Part shown: positions 10,978 to 64,000 of the stretch, piece after piece | Position numbering within the stretch: position 1 is the first letter of the stretch | How the letters are laid out: every line of letters begins with the position of its first letter | DNA from: a virus | DNA: 64,000 bases | Virus record (IMG/VR): IMGVR_UViG_3300047470_000115 | Coordinates: 1 to 64,000 of that record | Direction: 5' to 3' (one strand) | The notes under the pieces: model-generated | The model's input: only the letters and a program-made list of their open reading frames with translations | Databases searched by the model: none | What the model was told of the DNA's origin: nothing | Program-made: the position numbers and the translations under genes

Positions 10978-12705
10978 ATGGCCACTGGACTTGTCGACAG
11001 GAACGGCAACCCACTGAGTTCGAAGAACCATGCACGGACGGCTCGACCCAAGCCCATTGTTGGCGAGGCGTTCGGAAGCTGGACCGGGCGCGATCAGTTC
11101 ATGTACGAGATGCCCGGCGGAGGCTACGTACAGTTCGACCTGAGCAAGCTCACCCTCGCCGACTTTCGGGGGATGAAGACTCACTACCAGGTGAACGCAT
11201 CGCTCTCGCTGCTTTCGTTCATGATCCACCAGTCCGACTGGCACATTGAGTGCGATCAGGCGAAGATCGTGACCCACGTCGAAGACAATATGCGCAACGT
11301 CTGGTCGCGGCTCGTGAGGGCGATGAGTCAGGCGTTCTGGGCTGGCTACTCCCCCAACGTGCTCCAGTGGGAGAATGACGACAAGACCAGCACGGTCCAG
11401 CTGGAGAAGATCAAGGATCTGATTCCCGAAGAGTGCGACATCAACTGGAAGGAAGTCGAGGGGTACATCCCCCCGGATCGTCGTCCGGGTGTCGCACCGA
11501 AGTTCAAGGTGTATGACGGTATTCGTCAGATCGGTGCGCCCTGGCCGATCCCGGTACGTAACTCGCTCTGGTATCCGCTCCTCATGGAGAACGGCAACAT
11601 GTACGGGCGCCAGCTCCTGAAGGCTGCGTACACGCCGTACTTCTTCAGTATGCTTATGCACCTGTTCGCGAACAGGTACTACGAGCGCTTCGGCGAGCCG
11701 GTGCCCATCGGTCGTGCACCGTGGGACAGTGAAGTCGAGATGGGCGGAACGCGAGTCCGTGGCAACGAGGCCATGGCGACGATCCTCTCGAATCTCCGAA
11801 ACAGGTCGACGGTCGTGCTACCTGCAGACATCGACCAGGAGACCAAGGAGTTCGATTACCAGATCGAGTACCTCGAATCCCAGATGCGAGGTGCCGACTT
11901 CGAGCGTTACATGACGCGCCTCGACGAAGAGATCTCGCTTGCACTCTTCACTCCGCTTCTCATGATGCGGACTGCAGACATCGGCTCGTACAACCTCGGC
12001 GTCGGCCACACGCAGGTGTACCTGTGGCTGCTCAATGCGATCCTTGCGGACCTCACCGAGTACGTCAACAAGTACATCCTGTCTCCGATGGTGGACTTCA
12101 ACTTTGGCGAGAAGGCTCCACGCGCGAAGATCGTGTTCCGGAAGCTCGGAACGAAGAACGAAGAGACCATTCGCGCCATCATCACGGAGTTGATCCGTAA
12201 GGGTGCGGCAAAGGTCGACGTGGTCGAGCTGGGCGAGTCTCTGGGCATGAAGGTCGAAGAGGTTGAGGTTGTCACCGAGCCTGCACCTGCACCGACAGAC
12301 CCGTCGGCTGACCCGAACGCGGACCCTAACGCAGACCCGAATGCTGACCCCAACGCACCCAAGCAAGATAATCGTACGGGACGCGATAAGCCGAAGTCGC
12401 CGAAGGGAATCCAGAAGACTTCAAAGGTTCTCGACCTGATTCAGGGTCGCGTCTTTGCGCAGCTCCAGAAGGCAGAGAAGGATGGCTCGTCGCCGAGGAT
12501 TGACCTGGGCTACCTCGGCCAGCTGTCGGACTCGCTGATCGGGAGGGTGCCTCGTCCGAGCGAGACGGCTGGGCAGATGCACTCGCGATTCGAGGCGGCC
12601 CTCGGCGACCTCATGGCTGCCGATGAGTCAAGCGAGGCCATTTCTACGGACTTCGCCTGGTATCTCAAGGCTATCGCAGAGGAGGTTCTTGGTGAGCCAG
12701 CCTGA
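10978..12705 (+). CDS. Portal protein (DUF935/Mu gp29-like)
   Basis: Follows terL; YYERFGEPVPIGR and GSYNLG motifs; 575 aa. Confidence 0.88.
   Translation: MATGLVDRNGNPLSSKNHARTARPKPIVGEAFGSWTGRDQFMYEMPGGGYVQFDLSKLTLADFRGMKTHYQVNASLSLLSFMIHQSDWHIECDQAKIVTHVEDNMRNVWSRLVRAMSQAFWAGYSPNVLQWENDDKTSTVQLEKIKDLIPEECDINWKEVEGYIPPDRRPGVAPKFKVYDGIRQIGAPWPIPVRNSLWYPLLMENGNMYGRQLLKAAYTPYFFSMLMHLFANRYYERFGEPVPIGRAPWDSEVEMGGTRVRGNEAMATILSNLRNRSTVVLPADIDQETKEFDYQIEYLESQMRGADFERYMTRLDEEISLALFTPLLMMRTADIGSYNLGVGHTQVYLWLLNAILADLTEYVNKYILSPMVDFNFGEKAPRAKIVFRKLGTKNEETIRAIITELIRKGAAKVDVVELGESLGMKVEEVEVVTEPAPAPTDPSADPNADPNADPNADPNAPKQDNRTGRDKPKSPKGIQKTSKVLDLIQGRVFAQLQKAEKDGSSPRIDLGYLGQLSDSLIGRVPRPSETAGQMHSRFEAALGDLMAADESSEAISTDFAWYLKAIAEEVLGEPA
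12307..12357 (+). repeat. Coding tandem repeat (ADPN)x4 in the portal C-terminus
   Basis: ADPNADPNADPNADPN with synonymous codon variation. Confidence 0.85.
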
Positions 12706-58725: not shown

Positions 58726-60333
58726 TCAGCCGACGCGCGTTTTGACCGTTCCGCGTACCAAGTCGCGTTCGCGCGGGTCGAGGAAGTTGACCAGCGCGAT
58801 GTCGTACGCCTTAGTGAGCGGCCAGATGCGAGACAGCTTCGCCACCTTGATGCTGTGACGGACACCCCATGAAGTCGTGATCGAGTGATTGGCGGCGAGG
58901 CCACGCAGATCTTCGGCGATCCCGACGATCTGATCGAGCGTCTCCTCGCCGATCTTCCAGCCGATGTCAGGGTCGTCGGCCCACTCGCGCAGAATCTCGC
59001 GCTCGATATCGAACGGCGGATAGTCCACAGCGAGGTGCGCGAGACGAGAACTGTCTGCGTCGGCGATCATGTCAGCGCCCACGTTACGTGTATCCCAGGC
59101 AGGGTTCATCGCCAGGGCGAACACCGAGTCGGGATGGCGCTCGATGATCTCGCCAGCGTTCTTGTCGATGACGAACTGCTTCGAGTTGTCCGTGAGTGGA
59201 CGCACCGCCTGCCAGACCTCGACCGGCCCCACGTTGGGCTCGTCAAGGCAGATGACACCGGGCGACTGCCACGCACGAGGGAGGCGACCGTGGGCGAACT
59301 TGGTCGCGTTGTCCTGCAGGGTGAACTGGCCGACCAGTTCCTCGACCTCGGTGCTGGCCGTGATGCTGATCCGATGGAACGGCAACTGCATCAGCCACGC
59401 CATGTGTCGCAGGACTTCGGTCTTGCCGACACCTGCCGGACCCCACAGGGCGGGCGTCTCGTCCATCTCCCACCACAGGGCGGCGAGCATGAACACAAGG
59501 CCCAGGTAGTCGATGAAGTTCTCGGGGTGCTCGTCGTCGCCAGTGGTCGGTACCAGAGCCTGCAGGTTCTTGGGGAATCGCGCCTTGTCGTAGACCGGAA
59601 TGAACACCGAGGCTCCAGTGTCATGGTCAACGATCTCACGCCATGCCCTTATGCCGCGATCCTTGTCCTCGACACTCAGGGTGCGATCCGTCGGATACTG
59701 TGACGGATCGACGAAGTTGACACGCTCCGACTTCCACCGCTCCAAGGGTGTCATCATCTTGAAGTACGCGTCAACGAGCTCGGGGATGAGCCGCATCTGA
59801 CCGTCCATCTGACGATTGTGCACCGGCGTACCGCCGTAGCGCATCAGGCGAACAGCCGACCCGCACCGCTGCGACTTCTCGGCGACCTGCCCCTGAAAGA
59901 CCAGCTCGTTGCGTGAGCTGCAAATGCCGGTCCCCCGCCAGCCGAGACGAACCGTCTCGGCCCTGTTGTAGAAGATGCACTCCGTACAGGTCTCGACCTT
60001 CGGGATTCCATCGTTCTCGTCATCCTCCCCGAGCATGACCTGTGCCGCAACAGCCTCCCTACTCGGGAGCGTGACAGGCGGATTCACCTTCGACCAAGTC
60101 ACAGTCGACGGACGGGGCAAGCCGTACTCCTGGCACTTCCCCGCCGTCGCCTTGCGGAGTCCGTCGGCCTGCCTCGGATGCATCTCTTCACGTCCGAGAA
60201 TGTACCCGAACCTTGCGCAGTGGTCCATGCCGGTTCGAGTTCCGAAAAGCTTCTCGGACTCGGGACCGTCAGGAACGAACGAAGGGCACCCTACGCAAGA
60301 GCGCTTCTTCTCGCCGACAGCCTCGGTTGTCAT
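58726..60333 (-). CDS. MoxR/CobS-like AAA+ ATPase with Cys-rich N-terminal extension
   Basis: LWGPAGVGKT, ELVGQF, CLDEPN and ALAMNP...ADSSRL motifs. Confidence 0.9.
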   Translation of the reverse strand: MTTEAVGEKKRSCVGCPSFVPDGPESEKLFGTRTGMDHCARFGYILGREEMHPRQADGLRKATAGKCQEYGLPRPSTVTWSKVNPPVTLPSREAVAAQVMLGEDDENDGIPKVETCTECIFYNRAETVRLGWRGTGICSSRNELVFQGQVAEKSQRCGSAVRLMRYGGTPVHNRQMDGQMRLIPELVDAYFKMMTPLERWKSERVNFVDPSQYPTDRTLSVEDKDRGIRAWREIVDHDTGASVFIPVYDKARFPKNLQALVPTTGDDEHPENFIDYLGLVFMLAALWWEMDETPALWGPAGVGKTEVLRHMAWLMQLPFHRISITASTEVEELVGQFTLQDNATKFAHGRLPRAWQSPGVICLDEPNVGPVEVWQAVRPLTDNSKQFVIDKNAGEIIERHPDSVFALAMNPAWDTRNVGADMIADADSSRLAHLAVDYPPFDIEREILREWADDPDIGWKIGEETLDQIVGIAEDLRGLAANHSITTSWGVRHSIKVAKLSRIWPLTKAYDIALVNFLDPRERDLVRGTVKTRVG

Positions 60334-60345
60334 CCCGCACACCCC

Positions 60346-60792
60346 TCACTCGGCGGCCTTGCATTCCTTCTCGTACCGTCGATAGTACGGAAGAAGGTCC
60401 ACCTCTAGATTCTTGACATGTTCAGTAGTCTTGTCGTTCAACTTGTTCTGCCGGTCCTGAAGTTTAACCAGCCTCTGGAAATCCTTCTCCGCGATGGCCT
60501 CATGAGCCTGACTCATGAGATCGAGTTGCGGATTGCCAGCATCCCCCAGACCTGACGCCGCCTTGATGATGGCATCCAGGTTCTCCAACGCCTTCATACA
60601 AGAGCCAGGCGTCTTGTACTTCGTTACCGTCTTCGTGTCACCCTTTACAACCTCGGTGACTACAGGTGCCGGTTCCCTCTCCGATTGGTCGGGCCCATCG
60701 GGACCCCCGGGGGCGGAGCACCGTCCCATACTGAACACCATGGCCCCCACGAGGACCACCGCACCCGCACACCTGAGCGGAGTCATCGTCAC
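60346..60792 (-). CDS. Secreted/membrane-anchored protein (possible lipoprotein)
   Basis: N-terminal hydrophobic helix ending MGRC; coiled-coil C-terminus. Confidence 0.75.
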   Translation of the reverse strand: MTMTPLRCAGAVVLVGAMVFSMGRCSAPGGPDGPDQSEREPAPVVTEVVKGDTKTVTKYKTPGSCMKALENLDAIIKAASGLGDAGNPQLDLMSQAHEAIAEKDFQRLVKLQDRQNKLNDKTTEHVKNLEVDLLPYYRRYEKECKAAE

Positions 60793-61511
60793 TCCTCGGT
60801 GTCGTCGAGTTCCGCCATGGTCTCCAGGTAGTGCGGGTTATCGCGCAGGCAGATGGGACCGATGCCAAGTGATGTCGACTGCGGGTCGGTCAGCTCCTTG
60901 CCACATACGCCGCAGTATCCTTCCTGGCGTCCATAGATGATCTGCATCTTCGGGCCCTCAATGAAGATCTTCTTGAGGACCAGGTTGATGTGATCTGCCA
61001 TGCTCTCGACAATCGACGCCCAGGGCTTTACGCCTCGGTTGTCAATCAGGAGAACCTCGCGCAGCTTAAGCTGCGTCTTGGCCGTGCGCTTCGGCACGGA
61101 CTGAAGGCGCCAGCTGACGATCTTCTTCTCGTCACCCTCGCCCTCGGTCTGGACACCGATACGCCAGAACTCGTAGGACTGCCCGTCAGGCTTCGCCATG
61201 GCGAAGTAACCTTCAGGGATACCCATGATCATGTCCGGCTGCCACTTCAGGTGCTGAAGTCCGCCGGTCTTCTGTGGCTGCGCCACGGTCATCCCTCCTA
61301 GCCCACCAGTCCCCTTACGGAGATTAGCCACGTACGTAAAGCACTCATCGAAGGACATGGCCGCAGCCTTAACGAGGTCGCCACGCATGCGCCTCACCTC
61401 GTTAAGCATGCTCTCGGTCGGCTTGCGCTGACCCTGAACACAACTCCGAACCTCGGCAACACTTTCGTGACTGTGAGGCTCACCCCCCGACGTGCAGCGA
61501 ATCCTTGCCAT
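60789..61511 (-). CDS. DUF6011-like Zn-finger domain protein
   Basis: YGRQEGYCGVCGKELTDPQSTSLGIGPIC; N-terminal C...H.H.SVAEVRSC. Confidence 0.82.
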   Translation of the reverse strand: MARIRCTSGGEPHSHESVAEVRSCVQGQRKPTESMLNEVRRMRGDLVKAAAMSFDECFTYVANLRKGTGGLGGMTVAQPQKTGGLQHLKWQPDMIMGIPEGYFAMAKPDGQSYEFWRIGVQTEGEGDEKKIVSWRLQSVPKRTAKTQLKLREVLLIDNRGVKPWASIVESMADHINLVLKKIFIEGPKMQIIYGRQEGYCGVCGKELTDPQSTSLGIGPICLRDNPHYLETMAELDDTEE

Positions 61512-61577
61512 GAGACCCTAACCTCCGGATCAAATCGGACGCACGCATTGCACGCATTGGCGCATCATACACTATGG

Positions 61578-61617
61578 ACAAAGTCAGGCCCCTCACTCAC
61601 GGGAGTGAGGGGCCTGA
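61578..61617 (-). terminator. Intrinsic terminator
   Basis: 15-bp IR TCAGGCCCCTCACTC / GAGTGAGGGGCCTGA, then CTTTGT on the minus strand. Confidence 0.8.
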
Positions 61618-61636
61618 TGCTCATTGTGGATCTCGC

Positions 61637-62095
61637 CTAGGAGCCCAGACGTTTGATCTGTTCCTTGCGTGCAGTGTTCATCATGGGGTGTCGAGACGAC
61701 CCAGGCCGGTGACACATCTCCTCATGGGCGATGCGTTCCATTACCTCGTCGGGAGACTCGACACGACCCCGGTGAATCTCTTCCACCGGCCTGTCAGTGT
61801 CAGTCAGAGCCGACGTGTCGTTTACGACACTCCAGGTCTCTACGACCTTCGTCAGCATCACGGCACGAATACCCTCGCGGGCGAGGATGCGACCCCGCCG
61901 AGTGCGAGTGAACTCTTTTACCGTGAACACCAACTTAATGAGTGTCGGTGTGGCGATCACGCGCGCCAGGGTATCCTCCCTGACTTCGCTACGCTCCGCG
62001 TGAACCAGGATGCCAGTATCAGTCCGAACTCGACCAATGACTTGCATGGGAGTGAGGTTGTCAACGCCCCCGTACTGCAGCTGCCCAGTTTTCAA
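61637..62095 (-). CDS. Hypothetical protein
   Basis: 152 aa; TTGA overlap with the upstream stop. Confidence 0.6.
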   Translation of the reverse strand: MKTGQLQYGGVDNLTPMQVIGRVRTDTGILVHAERSEVREDTLARVIATPTLIKLVFTVKEFTRTRRGRILAREGIRAVMLTKVVETWSVVNDTSALTDTDRPVEEIHRGRVESPDEVMERIAHEEMCHRPGSSRHPMMNTARKEQIKRLGS

Positions 62096-62379
62096 CTCTG
62101 CTCTACCCCCACCAACTTGTCGAAGCAGTCGCCAGGCTCAGCCGTGACAATTCCGTGGGAAGTGCCACTCTGACCATGGATCGTAACACGGATGCGGCAT
62201 TTGGGCCGCTTCCTAGCACGCATCGACGACCCGGGGGAATGCAGGGTCACGGGCCCAACTGTCGCAATCGAACCGTCAGGCATGACGATCTGATCGGTTG
62301 CGACGAGCTGGACTGCAGCTATCGGTTCGGTTCTCACTCCCTCCGCCTGTTCGACACTCATGTTGCGCTTATCACTCAT
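62092..62379 (-). CDS. Hypothetical protein
   Basis: GGGGAG RBS before ATG 62379. Confidence 0.6.
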   Translation of the reverse strand: MSDKRNMSVEQAEGVRTEPIAAVQLVATDQIVMPDGSIATVGPVTLHSPGSSMRARKRPKCRIRVTIHGQSGTSHGIVTAEPGDCFDKLVGVEQS

Positions 62380-62399
62380 TCGCTGCTCCCCAGGTGGAG

Positions 62400-62548
62400 A
62401 TCCGAATACAACGAAGAGACCTGCTGTACGGCTTGCGACCGTATACCTCAACAAGTCAGGACCACCACCCAGTATAGGAAACGCGGCGCAGCGTGCGCAT
62501 ACTGGGGGGTGGACCTCACTTGATCGAGTACTCGACTCGATCATGGTG
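62400..62548 (-). ncRNA. Structured leader or small RNA candidate
   Basis: Downstream of a strong promoter; three consecutive hairpins, including a 21-bp interrupted stem and a GCAA-loop stem. Confidence 0.5.
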
Positions 62549-62554
62549 ATACCG

Positions 62555-62602
62555 ATTCTAGCACTACGTGCCCCCAACCGTCAACAGTTAGGGTACCCTA
62601 AC
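62555..62602 (-). promoter_or_regulatory. Strong promoter with an upstream palindromic operator
   Basis: TTGACG-N18-TAGAAT; perfect 16-bp palindrome GTTAGGGTACCCTAAC at 62587-62602. Confidence 0.75.
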
Positions 62603-62630
62603 CTAGCGCTGACGATTTGTCGACATGTCG

Positions 62631-62789
62631 CTACTCGCCCGGAGTGGCCATACTCAGATCAAGTTTGGCGCGGATGTTGTGATAGTTGGTCTCGTCACTC
62701 TCCGACCAGTCGCCGTCGTCAGAGTACTTCTGGCGGTGCGCGTCAAGCGCCTCCAGGACCAACGCATACTCGCCTTCAGTGAATTGCAT
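62631..62789 (-). CDS. 52-aa acidic micro-protein (not in the ORF track)
   Basis: GGAAGG RBS; MQFTEGEYALVLEALDAHRQKYSDDGDWSESDETNYHNIRAKLDLSMATPGE. Confidence 0.7.
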   Translation of the reverse strand: MQFTEGEYALVLEALDAHRQKYSDDGDWSESDETNYHNIRAKLDLSMATPGE

Positions 62790-62807
62790 ACTTGACCTTC
62801 CCCGGTA

Positions 62808-62932
62808 AGTAAAAACAAGGCGCTAGGGCGCTGCGCCGCAACCCAGAACTCAGGGCCACCCGAGTCTGGTTACCGGTCCAACCCGTTCAGGAAGACCGTG
62901 CGGCGCAGCTTCCTAGCGCCTTGTGTTTCGTT
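62808..62932 (-). ncRNA. Y-shaped (three-way junction) RNA with its own promoter and U-tail
   Basis: 13+11-bp closing stem, two internal hairpins, ends in TTTTTACTT. Confidence 0.6.
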
Positions 62933-62937
62933 GCCCG

Positions 62938-62966
62938 ATGATAACACGGGTGATCGCATCACACAA
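62938..62966 (-). promoter_or_regulatory. Promoter for the Y-shaped RNA
   Basis: TTGTGT-N17-TATCAT; shares GCGATC..CCG.GTTATCATCGG with the 7238 promoter. Confidence 0.55.
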
Positions 62967-62976
62967 CCCCCAACAA

Positions 62977-63019
62977 GTACTGAATCCCCCCGCATCTTGC
63001 TCTCGGGGGGATTCAGTAC
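62977..63019 (-). terminator. Intrinsic terminator
   Basis: 16-bp perfect IR GTACTGAATCCCCCCG / CGGGGGGATTCAGTAC, then TTGTT on the minus strand. Confidence 0.8.
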
Positions 63020-63037
63020 CGGGCTGGGAGACCCGCG

Positions 63038-64000
63038 TCAGGCAGTCCGACGCGCACCCTTCTTGCCCTCCGGCGAGTCCTCGGCCGTGACACCCTCGAT
63101 GTTCGGGATGGTGCTGGGGCCGCCGGACGACGGGAACAGGCGGGCGCTGACGGCACCGGCCGAGGGCGGGTTCTTGCCCTCGTACTCCTTCGACGGGAAC
63201 TTCGAGATCCAGGCGATGGCCTTGAACTCGCCGACCGGCACGTCAGCCATGGCCTCGGCGACGTGCTTGCCGATGTCACCCTGGGCACCACCCGGGACGC
63301 GCGGACGACTGCCGCCACCCGCCGAGGCGCGGCGCCGGGCACCGGCCGCCTTGCCGTCGGCCGCCTTGAAGGCGCGCTTCACGTACTCGGGCACCTCGGG
63401 CTCGTCGCCCCGGTTCTCGGTGTCCGTGTTCCGGTACCACTCGGCGTACGCCTCGAAGGACTTGTGCTCGTTGGTCTCCGGGTCCTGGTACGCGTTGACC
63501 AGGGCGTGGATCGACTCGCCCGCCTTCTCCTTGTCGACCTCGTCCGCGATCGGCAGCGCCATGGTGGCGAGCGACAGGGACAGGAACTGGTCGACGTACG
63601 CCTCGGTCGGGTCGACCTTCGCCGCCGTCGCGGTGGCGCGGGTCGCCGTGGCCGCCTTCTTGGTCTCGTTGACCAGGAGGTTGTACGACTTGGCGCGCAT
63701 GATCGAGTCGTACATCGTGTCTTCGCCCTCGTCGTCCAGGAGCTCCTGGACCTTGCCCGTCAGCATCGGGCGGGCCTTGCGCTTCTCGCTGGCGTCGAGC
63801 TTGCGGTACGCCTCGCCGAACTTGGCGATGAGGGCCTCGGGGAGGGAGCCGGTCTGCTTGTCGCGACCCTCGTCCTCCATGATCTCGGCGCACAGCTTCA
63901 TCAGGTCGGCGACCGGGTCGGCCTCGGGCTCGGTGGTCGCGTCCGCCTCGGCGGGCGCGTCGCCCTCGGAAGCCTGGGCCTCGCCGGTCGCCTCGGTGAC
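63038..64000 (-). CDS. Probably highly expressed hypothetical protein with C-terminal winged-HTH-like domain (5' truncated by the window)
   Basis: Extreme GC3; frame appears open to the window edge; C-terminal KNPPSAGAVSARLF. Confidence 0.8.
   Translation of the reverse strand, partial: VTEATGEAQASEGDAPAEADATTEPEADPVADLMKLCAEIMEDEGRDKQTGSLPEALIAKFGEAYRKLDASEKRKARPMLTGKVQELLDDEGEDTMYDSIMRAKSYNLLVNETKKAATATRATATAAKVDPTEAYVDQFLSLSLATMALPIADEVDKEKAGESIHALVNAYQDPETNEHKSFEAYAEWYRNTDTENRGDEPEVPEYVKRAFKAADGKAAGARRRASAGGGSRPRVPGGAQGDIGKHVAEAMADVPVGEFKAIAWISKFPSKEYEGKNPPSAGAVSARLFPSSGGPSTIPNIEGVTAEDSPEGKKGARRTA

Follow-up and report, generated by a model that had tools for sequence, protein, structure and literature searches.

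A Y-shaped RNA fold beside the phrog_6708 gene of an uncultured soil actinophage: a candidate self-terminating small RNA

The window analyzed here, bases 1-64000 of the 79,487-bp IMG/VR virus IMGVR_UViG_3300047470_000115 (rated complete), carries on its minus strand, downstream of a gene assigned to phrog_6708, a compact unit that consists of a promoter-like site, a Y-shaped fold with a three-way junction and a run of U residues. As judged from its sequence, the unit appears to be a novel conserved structured RNA, either a small phage transcript or an elaborated terminator. We lean, tentatively, toward the former: a structured small RNA of ~120 nucleotides (nt) that would be transcribed from its own promoter and would terminate itself. 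We favor this reading because the promoter-like site is rare, the bases between that site and the closing helix are invariant among natural variants, the invariant block ends at the U-run, and the U-run surpasses the T tail of every other long hairpin in the genome. The unit belongs to the module of the upstream phrog_6708 gene and is inherited with it, rather than with the small open reading frame (ORF) that follows.

To our knowledge, very few noncoding RNAs are known from actinobacterial phages, and this one resembles none of them. If a discrete RNA is made, it would be an unusually clear example of an RNA whose entire body is a terminator; if the element is only a second terminator, it is ordinary. 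The slot beside the phrog_6708 gene offers a defined place to seek RNA-based regulation or processing across a large actinophage group, and its cultured members (the Tsukamurella TIN phages and Gordonia phages) make such questions testable at the bench.

The fold, its U-run and the promoter-like site

The unit and the hairpin that precedes it comprise the following features.

62938..62966, minus strand: promoter-like site, TTGTGT (62966-62961), 17-nt spacer, TATCAT (62943-62938)
62815..62924, minus strand: Y-shaped three-way-junction fold, 110 nt, from RNA folding
62807..62815, minus strand: U-run, TTTTTACTT at 62815-62807, with UUUUUACUU immediately 3' of the closing helix
62977..63019, minus strand: hairpin T1, a perfect 16-bp stem (arms 62977-62992 / 63004-63019) with an 11-nt loop and the tail UUGUUGGGGG

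The closing helix consists of a 13-bp lower stem (62912-62924 / 62815-62827) and an 11-bp upper stem (62899-62909 / 62830-62840), separated by a 2x2 internal loop (AA/GC). It encloses 58 nt that form two hairpins: hairpin 1 (62874-62898), whose 13-nt apical loop region (62880-62892) is the only sizeable single-stranded part of the fold, and hairpin 2 (62843-62869), which has a UGGC loop. An earlier note on this DNA, made by reading the letters, had drawn the internal loop as AA opposite a single G, which we correct to 2x2; otherwise its description of the unit held up, since the 24-bp closing stem, two hairpins, three-way junction and U-tail are all present on the minus strand, as are the 16-bp hairpin upstream and the TTGTGT-17-TATCAT sequence, a predicted promoter. 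An A-rich 5' tail, AACGAAAC, mirrors the U-run.

The fold is far more stable than expected from its composition: its minimum free energy is −78.5 kcal/mol, compared with −45.7 ± 3.9 kcal/mol for shuffled sequences (z = −8.5), and none of 200 shuffles was as stable. Its centroid and minimum-energy structures concur, and the fold is retained when 291 nt of context are folded; the folds gave one dominant structure and no alternative (antiterminator) pairing. Compared with its plus-strand counterpart (−73 kcal/mol), the minus-strand RNA gains 5.5 kcal/mol in stability, and three of its pairs are G-U, which turn into A-C mismatches when the opposite strand is folded; together, strand stability and G-U pairs argue that the fold probably acts at the RNA level, on the gene strand.

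The U-run is the best T-run behind any long hairpin of this genome; other terminator-like hairpins have poorer T tails. As in an intrinsic terminator, a GC-rich stem (the 13-bp plus 11-bp helix) is followed on the transcribed strand by a U-rich tract, UUUUUACUU; in place of a simple hairpin with a 3- to 8-nt loop, however, this stem encloses 58 nt and two hairpins. A terminator scan of 60000-64000 returned no terminator-like site. The helix also has the length of a ribonuclease (RNase) III-type duplex (about 20 bp or more, near-continuous), with 24 bp interrupted by the 2x2 loop.

The promoter-like site is of the extended −10 type, with TG two bases 5' of the −10 hexamer; the predicted transcription start lies at about 62931, and the site ends 6 to 7 nt upstream of the fold's 5' tail. 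We scanned both strands of the 79.5-kb genome (159 kb in all) for sites with a −10 match of at least 5/6 that includes A2 and T6, a TG extension, TTG at −35 and a spacer of 16 to 18 nt. Exactly two sites qualified: 62966-62938 and the promoter of the neighboring downstream unit (62584-62555), both intergenic and both on the gene strand. A 13-nt palindrome in the promoter spacer was considered as an operator and dismissed, because it is broken in one of the variants described below (X4). Hairpin T1, which begins 18 nt past the stop codon of the upstream gene, is probably a terminator or 3' stabilizer of that gene.

The earlier note recognized no RNA family in the element, and the database searches agree. 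With E values up to 10, a cmscan of 60000-64000 against Rfam 15 gave no match over 62807-62932; spurious microRNA models on T1 were the sole matches nearby. ARAGORN found no transfer RNA or transfer-messenger RNA gene in the whole window, and blastn of the region against 50,697 phage records gave no match. The fold is single-copy, with only self-matches in the 79.5-kb genome, and no true copy was found in phage records, IMG/VR or genome collections; when exact patterns were sought in IMG/VR and in 185,579 genomes, all matches were due to chance and lay in unrelated DNA. Run against all loci fetched for comparison (see below), a covariance model built on the fold (R1) matched only generic hairpins with E values of 0.02 or worse. 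A model search in loci L060, L062 and L063 found no copy of the fold, and a match in L061 (E = 0.00035) was rejected as an unrelated simple hairpin. Literature searches returned nothing specific to the element.

Natural variants and distant relatives of the slot

Contigs from soil and rhizosphere DNA runs supplied variants of the region, X2 to X5, whose differences from the window were compared by listed position. The genes that flank the unit, needed to place these differences, are listed here.

64153-63038 (63038..64000 inside the window), minus strand: upstream gene, 371 amino acids (aa), from the ORF list
62801-62796, minus strand: Shine-Dalgarno sequence GGAAGG, 6 nt before an ATG
62631-62789, minus strand: acidic 52-aa ORF (ATG at 62789), isoelectric point 4.35, from the ORF list

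X2 has no listed change in 62811-62971 and two farther upstream, compared with 14 in 62712-62810; its first change is at 62810, so that its mosaic boundary falls at the end of the U-run. X4 has no listed change in 62853-62959, compared with 14 in 62960-63044, and its sequence beyond 62637, where the ORF would be, is unlike that of the window. X3 is unchanged over 62927-62971. X5 joins 62635 to 62806 via 14 other letters: the ribosome-binding site (RBS) and ORF are gone, but the fold is retained (62806-62889 is kept), and the indel boundary is at 62806. Within the fold, no changes are listed for X2, at most one (unlisted) falls in X4, and one (unlisted) in X5. The −10 hexamer, TG and TTG of the promoter-like site are identical in X2, X3 and X4; X4 alters the site only at 62960 and 62963. 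T1 varies in a manner that spares its stem: in X4 the stem is unaltered, with changes confined to the loop and flanks, and the single stem change in X3 (63010) retains a G-U pair. As read from these contigs, the conserved block begins inside the promoter-like site and ends at the U-run, while the flanks diverge. Because the ORF-less variant keeps the fold and because the mosaic and indel boundaries fall at the U-run, the fold goes with the upstream gene and not with the ORF.

To look at the same slot in more distant phages, we used an alignment of the upstream protein as an anchor, which fetched 9 viral and 44 metagenome loci whose identity is 30 to 39% across most of the gene (some short pieces from the C terminus reach 68%); a search of IMG/VR with the single upstream protein found no related loci. 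Of the 34 loci with enough sequence, 19 have a long inverted repeat (minimum arm length 9 nt, spacing 25 to 130 nt) in the 250 nt after the gene, and the density of such repeats after the gene is 4-fold that elsewhere in the same loci (3.3 versus 0.8 per kb). Hairpins equivalent to T1 follow the gene in most relatives. In the typical arrangement, a perfect T1-like hairpin of 13 to 17 bp is followed directly by a 75- to 130-nt hairpin with small symmetric mismatches; the next gene varies, and its RBS lies 25 to 40 nt past the long hairpin. A DUF6011 gene farther downstream supports synteny.

Seven of these loci share a hairpin family, designated R2 (E = 1e-15 to 3e-5), whose members were located with a covariance model.

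L037:2718-2792: R2 hairpin
L021:3313-3381: R2 hairpin
L030:2180-2278: R2 hairpin
L007:4054-4129: R2 hairpin
L031:1775-1852: R2 hairpin
L019:3293-3368: R2 hairpin
L044:1716-1782: R2 hairpin

The copy in L044 is upstream of the gene; the others lie mostly just after the gene and the first hairpin. The invariant core of R2, A-GGCUG / CAGYCC, includes a conserved A-C mismatch. Compensatory changes occur at 16 of 22 pairs, G-U pairs on the sense strand are numerous, and the paired columns are free of A-C; this covariation and the sense-strand G-U pairs argue that R2 hairpins are a selected structure of the sense transcript, and they appear to form a previously undescribed family. Rfam gave only spurious microRNA matches to the relatives' hairpins. 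Run over the window with default filters, the R2 model found no match; with filters off, the Y-shaped fold was its best local match, on the right strand, with only 10.5 bits (E = 0.098 in 2 kb), and the counterpart of the R2 core in the fold reads AAGCUG / CAGCGCC. By position and architecture, the window fold appears equivalent to the relatives' elements; homology is unproven.

One cultured relative, Tsukamurella phage TIN4, has a branched fold of its own in this slot.

L014:3519-3638: TIN4 branched fold of about 120 nt (−60.4 kcal/mol, z = −3.9), in the 440-nt gap between Orf89 (the homologue of the upstream protein) and Orf88

Its long closing helix carries 1x1 mismatches, and it ends about 30 nt before the Orf88 start codon. 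A separate feature of five relatives is that the 5' base of the second hairpin reuses the 3' arm of the first, and that the word recurs after the second hairpin, in the order a, a', ..., a (L043:1059-1253, L041:3387-3584, L018:3464-3623, L007:4012-4157 and L030:2137-2299); two mutually exclusive pairings are possible in this arrangement.

Readings of the unit

In the reading that we tentatively favor, host RNA polymerase would initiate near 62931 from the extended −10 promoter (62966-62938). Folding would begin with the two inner hairpins, and the emerging 3' arm would then zip up the 24-bp helix with the 5' arm just before the U-run, so that the whole RNA would serve as its own intrinsic terminator, with both ends locked in duplex. 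A fraction of polymerases might read through; because the 52-aa ORF has an RBS but no promoter, read-through would be its only visible route of expression. If the RNA acts in trans, the loop of hairpin 1 is the part most likely responsible. Where transcription begins and ends, how abundant the RNA is and how it acts are all points that we infer only. The proposal of the earlier note that this is a novel phage noncoding RNA unit stands in part: the structure is discrete, conserved, single-copy and without a family, and the promoter-like site is rare and heads an invariant block that runs to the U-run, but the part of that proposal in which the RNA gates the ORF is disfavored.

Several observations weigh against a discrete small RNA. 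A consensus promoter scan tool made no call at 62966-62938, where the −35 element matches at only 3/6 positions. Contigs of close relatives (near-identical phages) were found in four DNA runs, from soil and rhizosphere, and no RNA run contained this phage. The fold shows no covariation of its own, the available variants being identical there; given how clearly mosaic these variants are, this identity could instead reflect recent recombination. Five of the 21 X2 contig differences (probably near the contig end), one in X4 and one in X5 are not listed by position. An RNA of this shape may be cut and so not accumulate, since a helix of 24 to 26 bp is a textbook RNase III substrate. Finally, the relatives' long hairpins adjoin T1, leaving no room for a promoter, and lack a U-run; on grounds of parsimony, cis-acting mRNA elements may occupy the slot.

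The last points lead to a serious, though lesser, possibility: that no separate RNA is made and that the fold is a cis element at the 3' end of the phrog_6708 module, a second terminator backing T1, an RNase III site, or both. Like the intercistronic sites of T7 early mRNA, it would uncouple an abundant upstream mRNA from the genes downstream. This alternative would account for the enriched long inverted repeats after the gene in the 19 of 34 distant loci, usually directly behind a T1-like hairpin, and for the one family among them with 16 of 22 covarying pairs and sense-strand G-U pairs; it is the parsimonious choice given that the relatives' hairpins have no promoter, and the mosaic and indel boundaries, both of which fall at the U-run, link the fold with the gene upstream. 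By analogy, the helix (13 bp, 2x2 loop, 11 bp) resembles RNase III substrates in size and shape. What a cis element leaves unexplained is why a rare promoter-like site separates T1 from the fold, and also the contrast in X4 between the invariant 34 nt from site to stem and the 14 changes in the next 85 nt. Moreover, the relatives' elements lack the U-run, and the fold scores just 10.5 bits with the R2 model, so that the equivalence is positional. The small-RNA and cis-element readings are not mutually exclusive.

The earlier note had also suggested a riboswitch or attenuator gating a small effector. That the 52-aa ORF has an RBS (which starts 14 nt past the U-run) but no promoter would suit such a leader, as would the complementarity of CUUCC in loop 1 to GGAAG of the ORF's RBS. 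Nevertheless, we consider gating very unlikely: X5 keeps the fold although 14 nt replace the RBS and ORF, X4 is unlike the window in the ORF's place, the divergence boundary of X2 falls exactly between fold and ORF, the folds contain no alternative antiterminator pairing, and no Rfam riboswitch matched. Even less credible is a DNA-level element, such as a repeat resembling a miniature inverted-repeat transposable element (MITE) or repetitive extragenic palindrome (REP), a recombination site, or a replication or packaging signal. The sequence is indeed a long, imperfect palindrome and can fold on either strand (−73 kcal/mol on the plus strand), but it is single-copy, with no copies found elsewhere, and has no terminal inverted repeats with target duplication; the three sense-strand G-U pairs would be A-C mismatches on the other strand; and its center consists of two different hairpins that do not continue the palindrome. 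A known MITE- or REP-like repeat, which the earlier note had named as the finding that would undo its proposal, is therefore not what the searches point to.

Returning to the self-terminating small RNA, one special case of it, which we regard as improbable, is a trans-acting antisense RNA: the loop of hairpin 1, UGAACGGGUUG (62889-62879), would pair with the duplicated 5' leader of two right-end genes that start at genome positions 75821 and 75090. The loop is exactly complementary to 75844-75854 over 11 nt and to 75113-75122 over 10 nt, each extendable to 12 bp with one G-U pair; the match falls in the only large loop of the fold, and in 2.15% of trials a shuffled loop attained a run of 11 in any of the 316 candidate initiation regions. 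However, the two targets are copies of one element and count as one event; the test was post hoc and carried no penalty for other loops, so that the true P is perhaps 0.05; the BLAST E value of the 11-mer against the whole genome is 1.8; the site overlaps neither the Shine-Dalgarno sequence nor the start codon; and comparative support is lacking. The matched leader element lies just 5' of a small hairpin that bears the Shine-Dalgarno sequence, and the two target proteins have no Pfam family.

The leader occurs at genome 75088-75122 and 75819-75853 (L059:11088-11122 and 11819-11853), before two unrelated right-end genes, and its two copies show a compensatory change, C-G to U-A, in the 4-bp stem that holds the Shine-Dalgarno sequence.

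A broader and equally doubtful proposal is that, across this group of ~75-kb actinophages, the slot after the phrog_6708 gene houses partner RNAs of that protein, as a gene-plus-RNA module (a ribonucleoprotein or an RNA operator), and that the window version became an independent small RNA, which may also repress the two right-end genes via its loop. Candidate partners may include the R2 family, the 120-nt branched fold of TIN4 and the promoter-equipped Y-shaped RNA; binding of the neighboring RNA by the phrog_6708 protein is speculation.

Known systems resemble the unit in part. Like lambda OOP RNA, it is a short early-region noncoding unit with a host-type promoter, a hairpin plus U-run and a loop available for antisense pairing, although all of these are predicted here. 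OOP is antisense to a neighboring gene and has a simple terminal hairpin, whereas the window unit is one branched hairpin with paired ends; no transcription runs opposite to it, and it has no established target and has no sequence relation to OOP. With intrinsic terminators and the tandem hairpins of actinobacteria, it shares a GC-rich helix, a U-run, an A-rich 5' flank, a position downstream of a gene regarded as highly expressed and its place as second of a tandem pair. Tandem hairpin terminators have been described computationally in actinobacteria, and ordinary terminator loops span 3 to 8 nt. Unlike ordinary terminators, the fold has a 58-nt, two-hairpin "loop" and a promoter-like site, and conservation is just as strict in its interior as in its stem. 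Like the T7 RNase III sites (R1.1 and others), it is an intercistronic helix of about two turns with a small internal loop, located after a gene considered to be strongly expressed; the T7 sites, however, have asymmetric internal loops and neither U-run nor promoter, whereas the window fold has a 2x2 loop, a U-run and a promoter-like site.

The likeness to bacterial Y RNAs (YrlA, with Rsr/Ro60) is one of outline only: about 110 to 125 nt, a long terminal helix closing a multibranched domain, and a position beside a conserved protein gene. Y RNAs also occur in some actinophages. No Rfam Y RNA model matched the fold at E values up to 10, and there was no TROVE/Ro hit among the neighbors. As for the R2 family, it shares with the window fold mostly the same slot and strand, a long helix and a small mismatch below a stem that starts G(G)CUG / CAG(Y)C; R2 is unbranched, has an invariant core and lacks a U-run and promoter, whereas the window fold is branched and scores 10.5 bits.

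Genome setting and neighboring genes

The phage is an uncultured soil actinophage with a GC content of 59%. Distant relatives of the genes around the unit belong to Gordonia (Montyvirus), Tsukamurella (TIN) and Rhodococcus phages of about 75 kb. Its structural genes are on the plus strand (about 7.5 to 37.4 kb); the unit, comprising promoter-like site, fold and ORF, sits in a long leftward arm that is read from the minus strand.

The upstream protein is assigned to phrog_6708, of unknown function (PHROGs match, 3e-34); none of its 118 homologues, which occur in Gordonia and Tsukamurella phages among others, is named. Closer relatives (P0002-P0008, 61 to 44% identity) lie on Logan contigs. No Pfam family and no PDB sequence match was found for the protein. 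Its gene forms an island of 70% GC inside the 59% GC genome; we regard the gene as highly expressed and its protein as abundant. In an AlphaFold model (predicted local distance difference test [pLDDT] score of 73), the acidic N terminus is disordered (pLDDT <50 for residues 1-75), while the C-terminal 80 residues, which are highly conserved, gave a weak match to a LOTUS/winged-helix-like fold (probability 0.89, E = 0.5). Otherwise, fold searches with the model returned only background-level helical matches (Z up to 8.3) and uncharacterized TIN2 and GMA3 proteins, which were uninformative. A nearby VWA protein matched CobT_C only.

The RBS and hidden acidic micro-ORF seen by the earlier note are present, and the ORF is a genuine coding gene under purifying selection. 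Its GC content by codon position is 0.60/0.36/0.75, and all seven changes listed in its body in X2 are synonymous third-position changes. At the start (window 62784-62789), X2 has ATA for ATG and TTG for the second codon, CAA, so that the start moves by one codon; the rest of the X2 protein is unchanged. Homologues were absent from 5.8 billion proteins, from the 50,697 phage records (tblastn), and from Pfam and PHROGs, and a search of Atlas features for the orphan ORF gave only sub-threshold leads. The ORF is thus an orphan, and because it is absent in X5 and replaced by unlike sequence in X4, it is an optional, dispensable cassette.

The next transcription unit marks the downstream end of the variable ORF slot and stays beside the fold in X5.

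62555..62602, minus strand: start of the next transcription unit, a 16-bp palindrome, GTTAGGGTACCCTAAC (62587-62602), abutting the promoter TTGACG-18-TAGAAT

This operator-flanked promoter lies 380 nt downstream of the promoter-like site at 62966-62938. The word GCGCTAGG, or its complement, occurs three times in 320 nt, at 62602-62609, 62820-62827 and 62912-62919; two of these copies are arms of the closing helix, and the third adjoins the operator palindrome. In the ORF-less X5, this third copy would sit about 60 nt from the 3' arm. The 8-mer is not enriched in the relatives, where it is under-represented (8 observed versus 14 expected).

A second small variable patch, at 62464-62510, lies within the structured leader of the next operon. 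The X2, X4 and X5 contigs all stop matching at 62463 and resume at 62511, with unlike letters between (GCACCCAGGTGC...).

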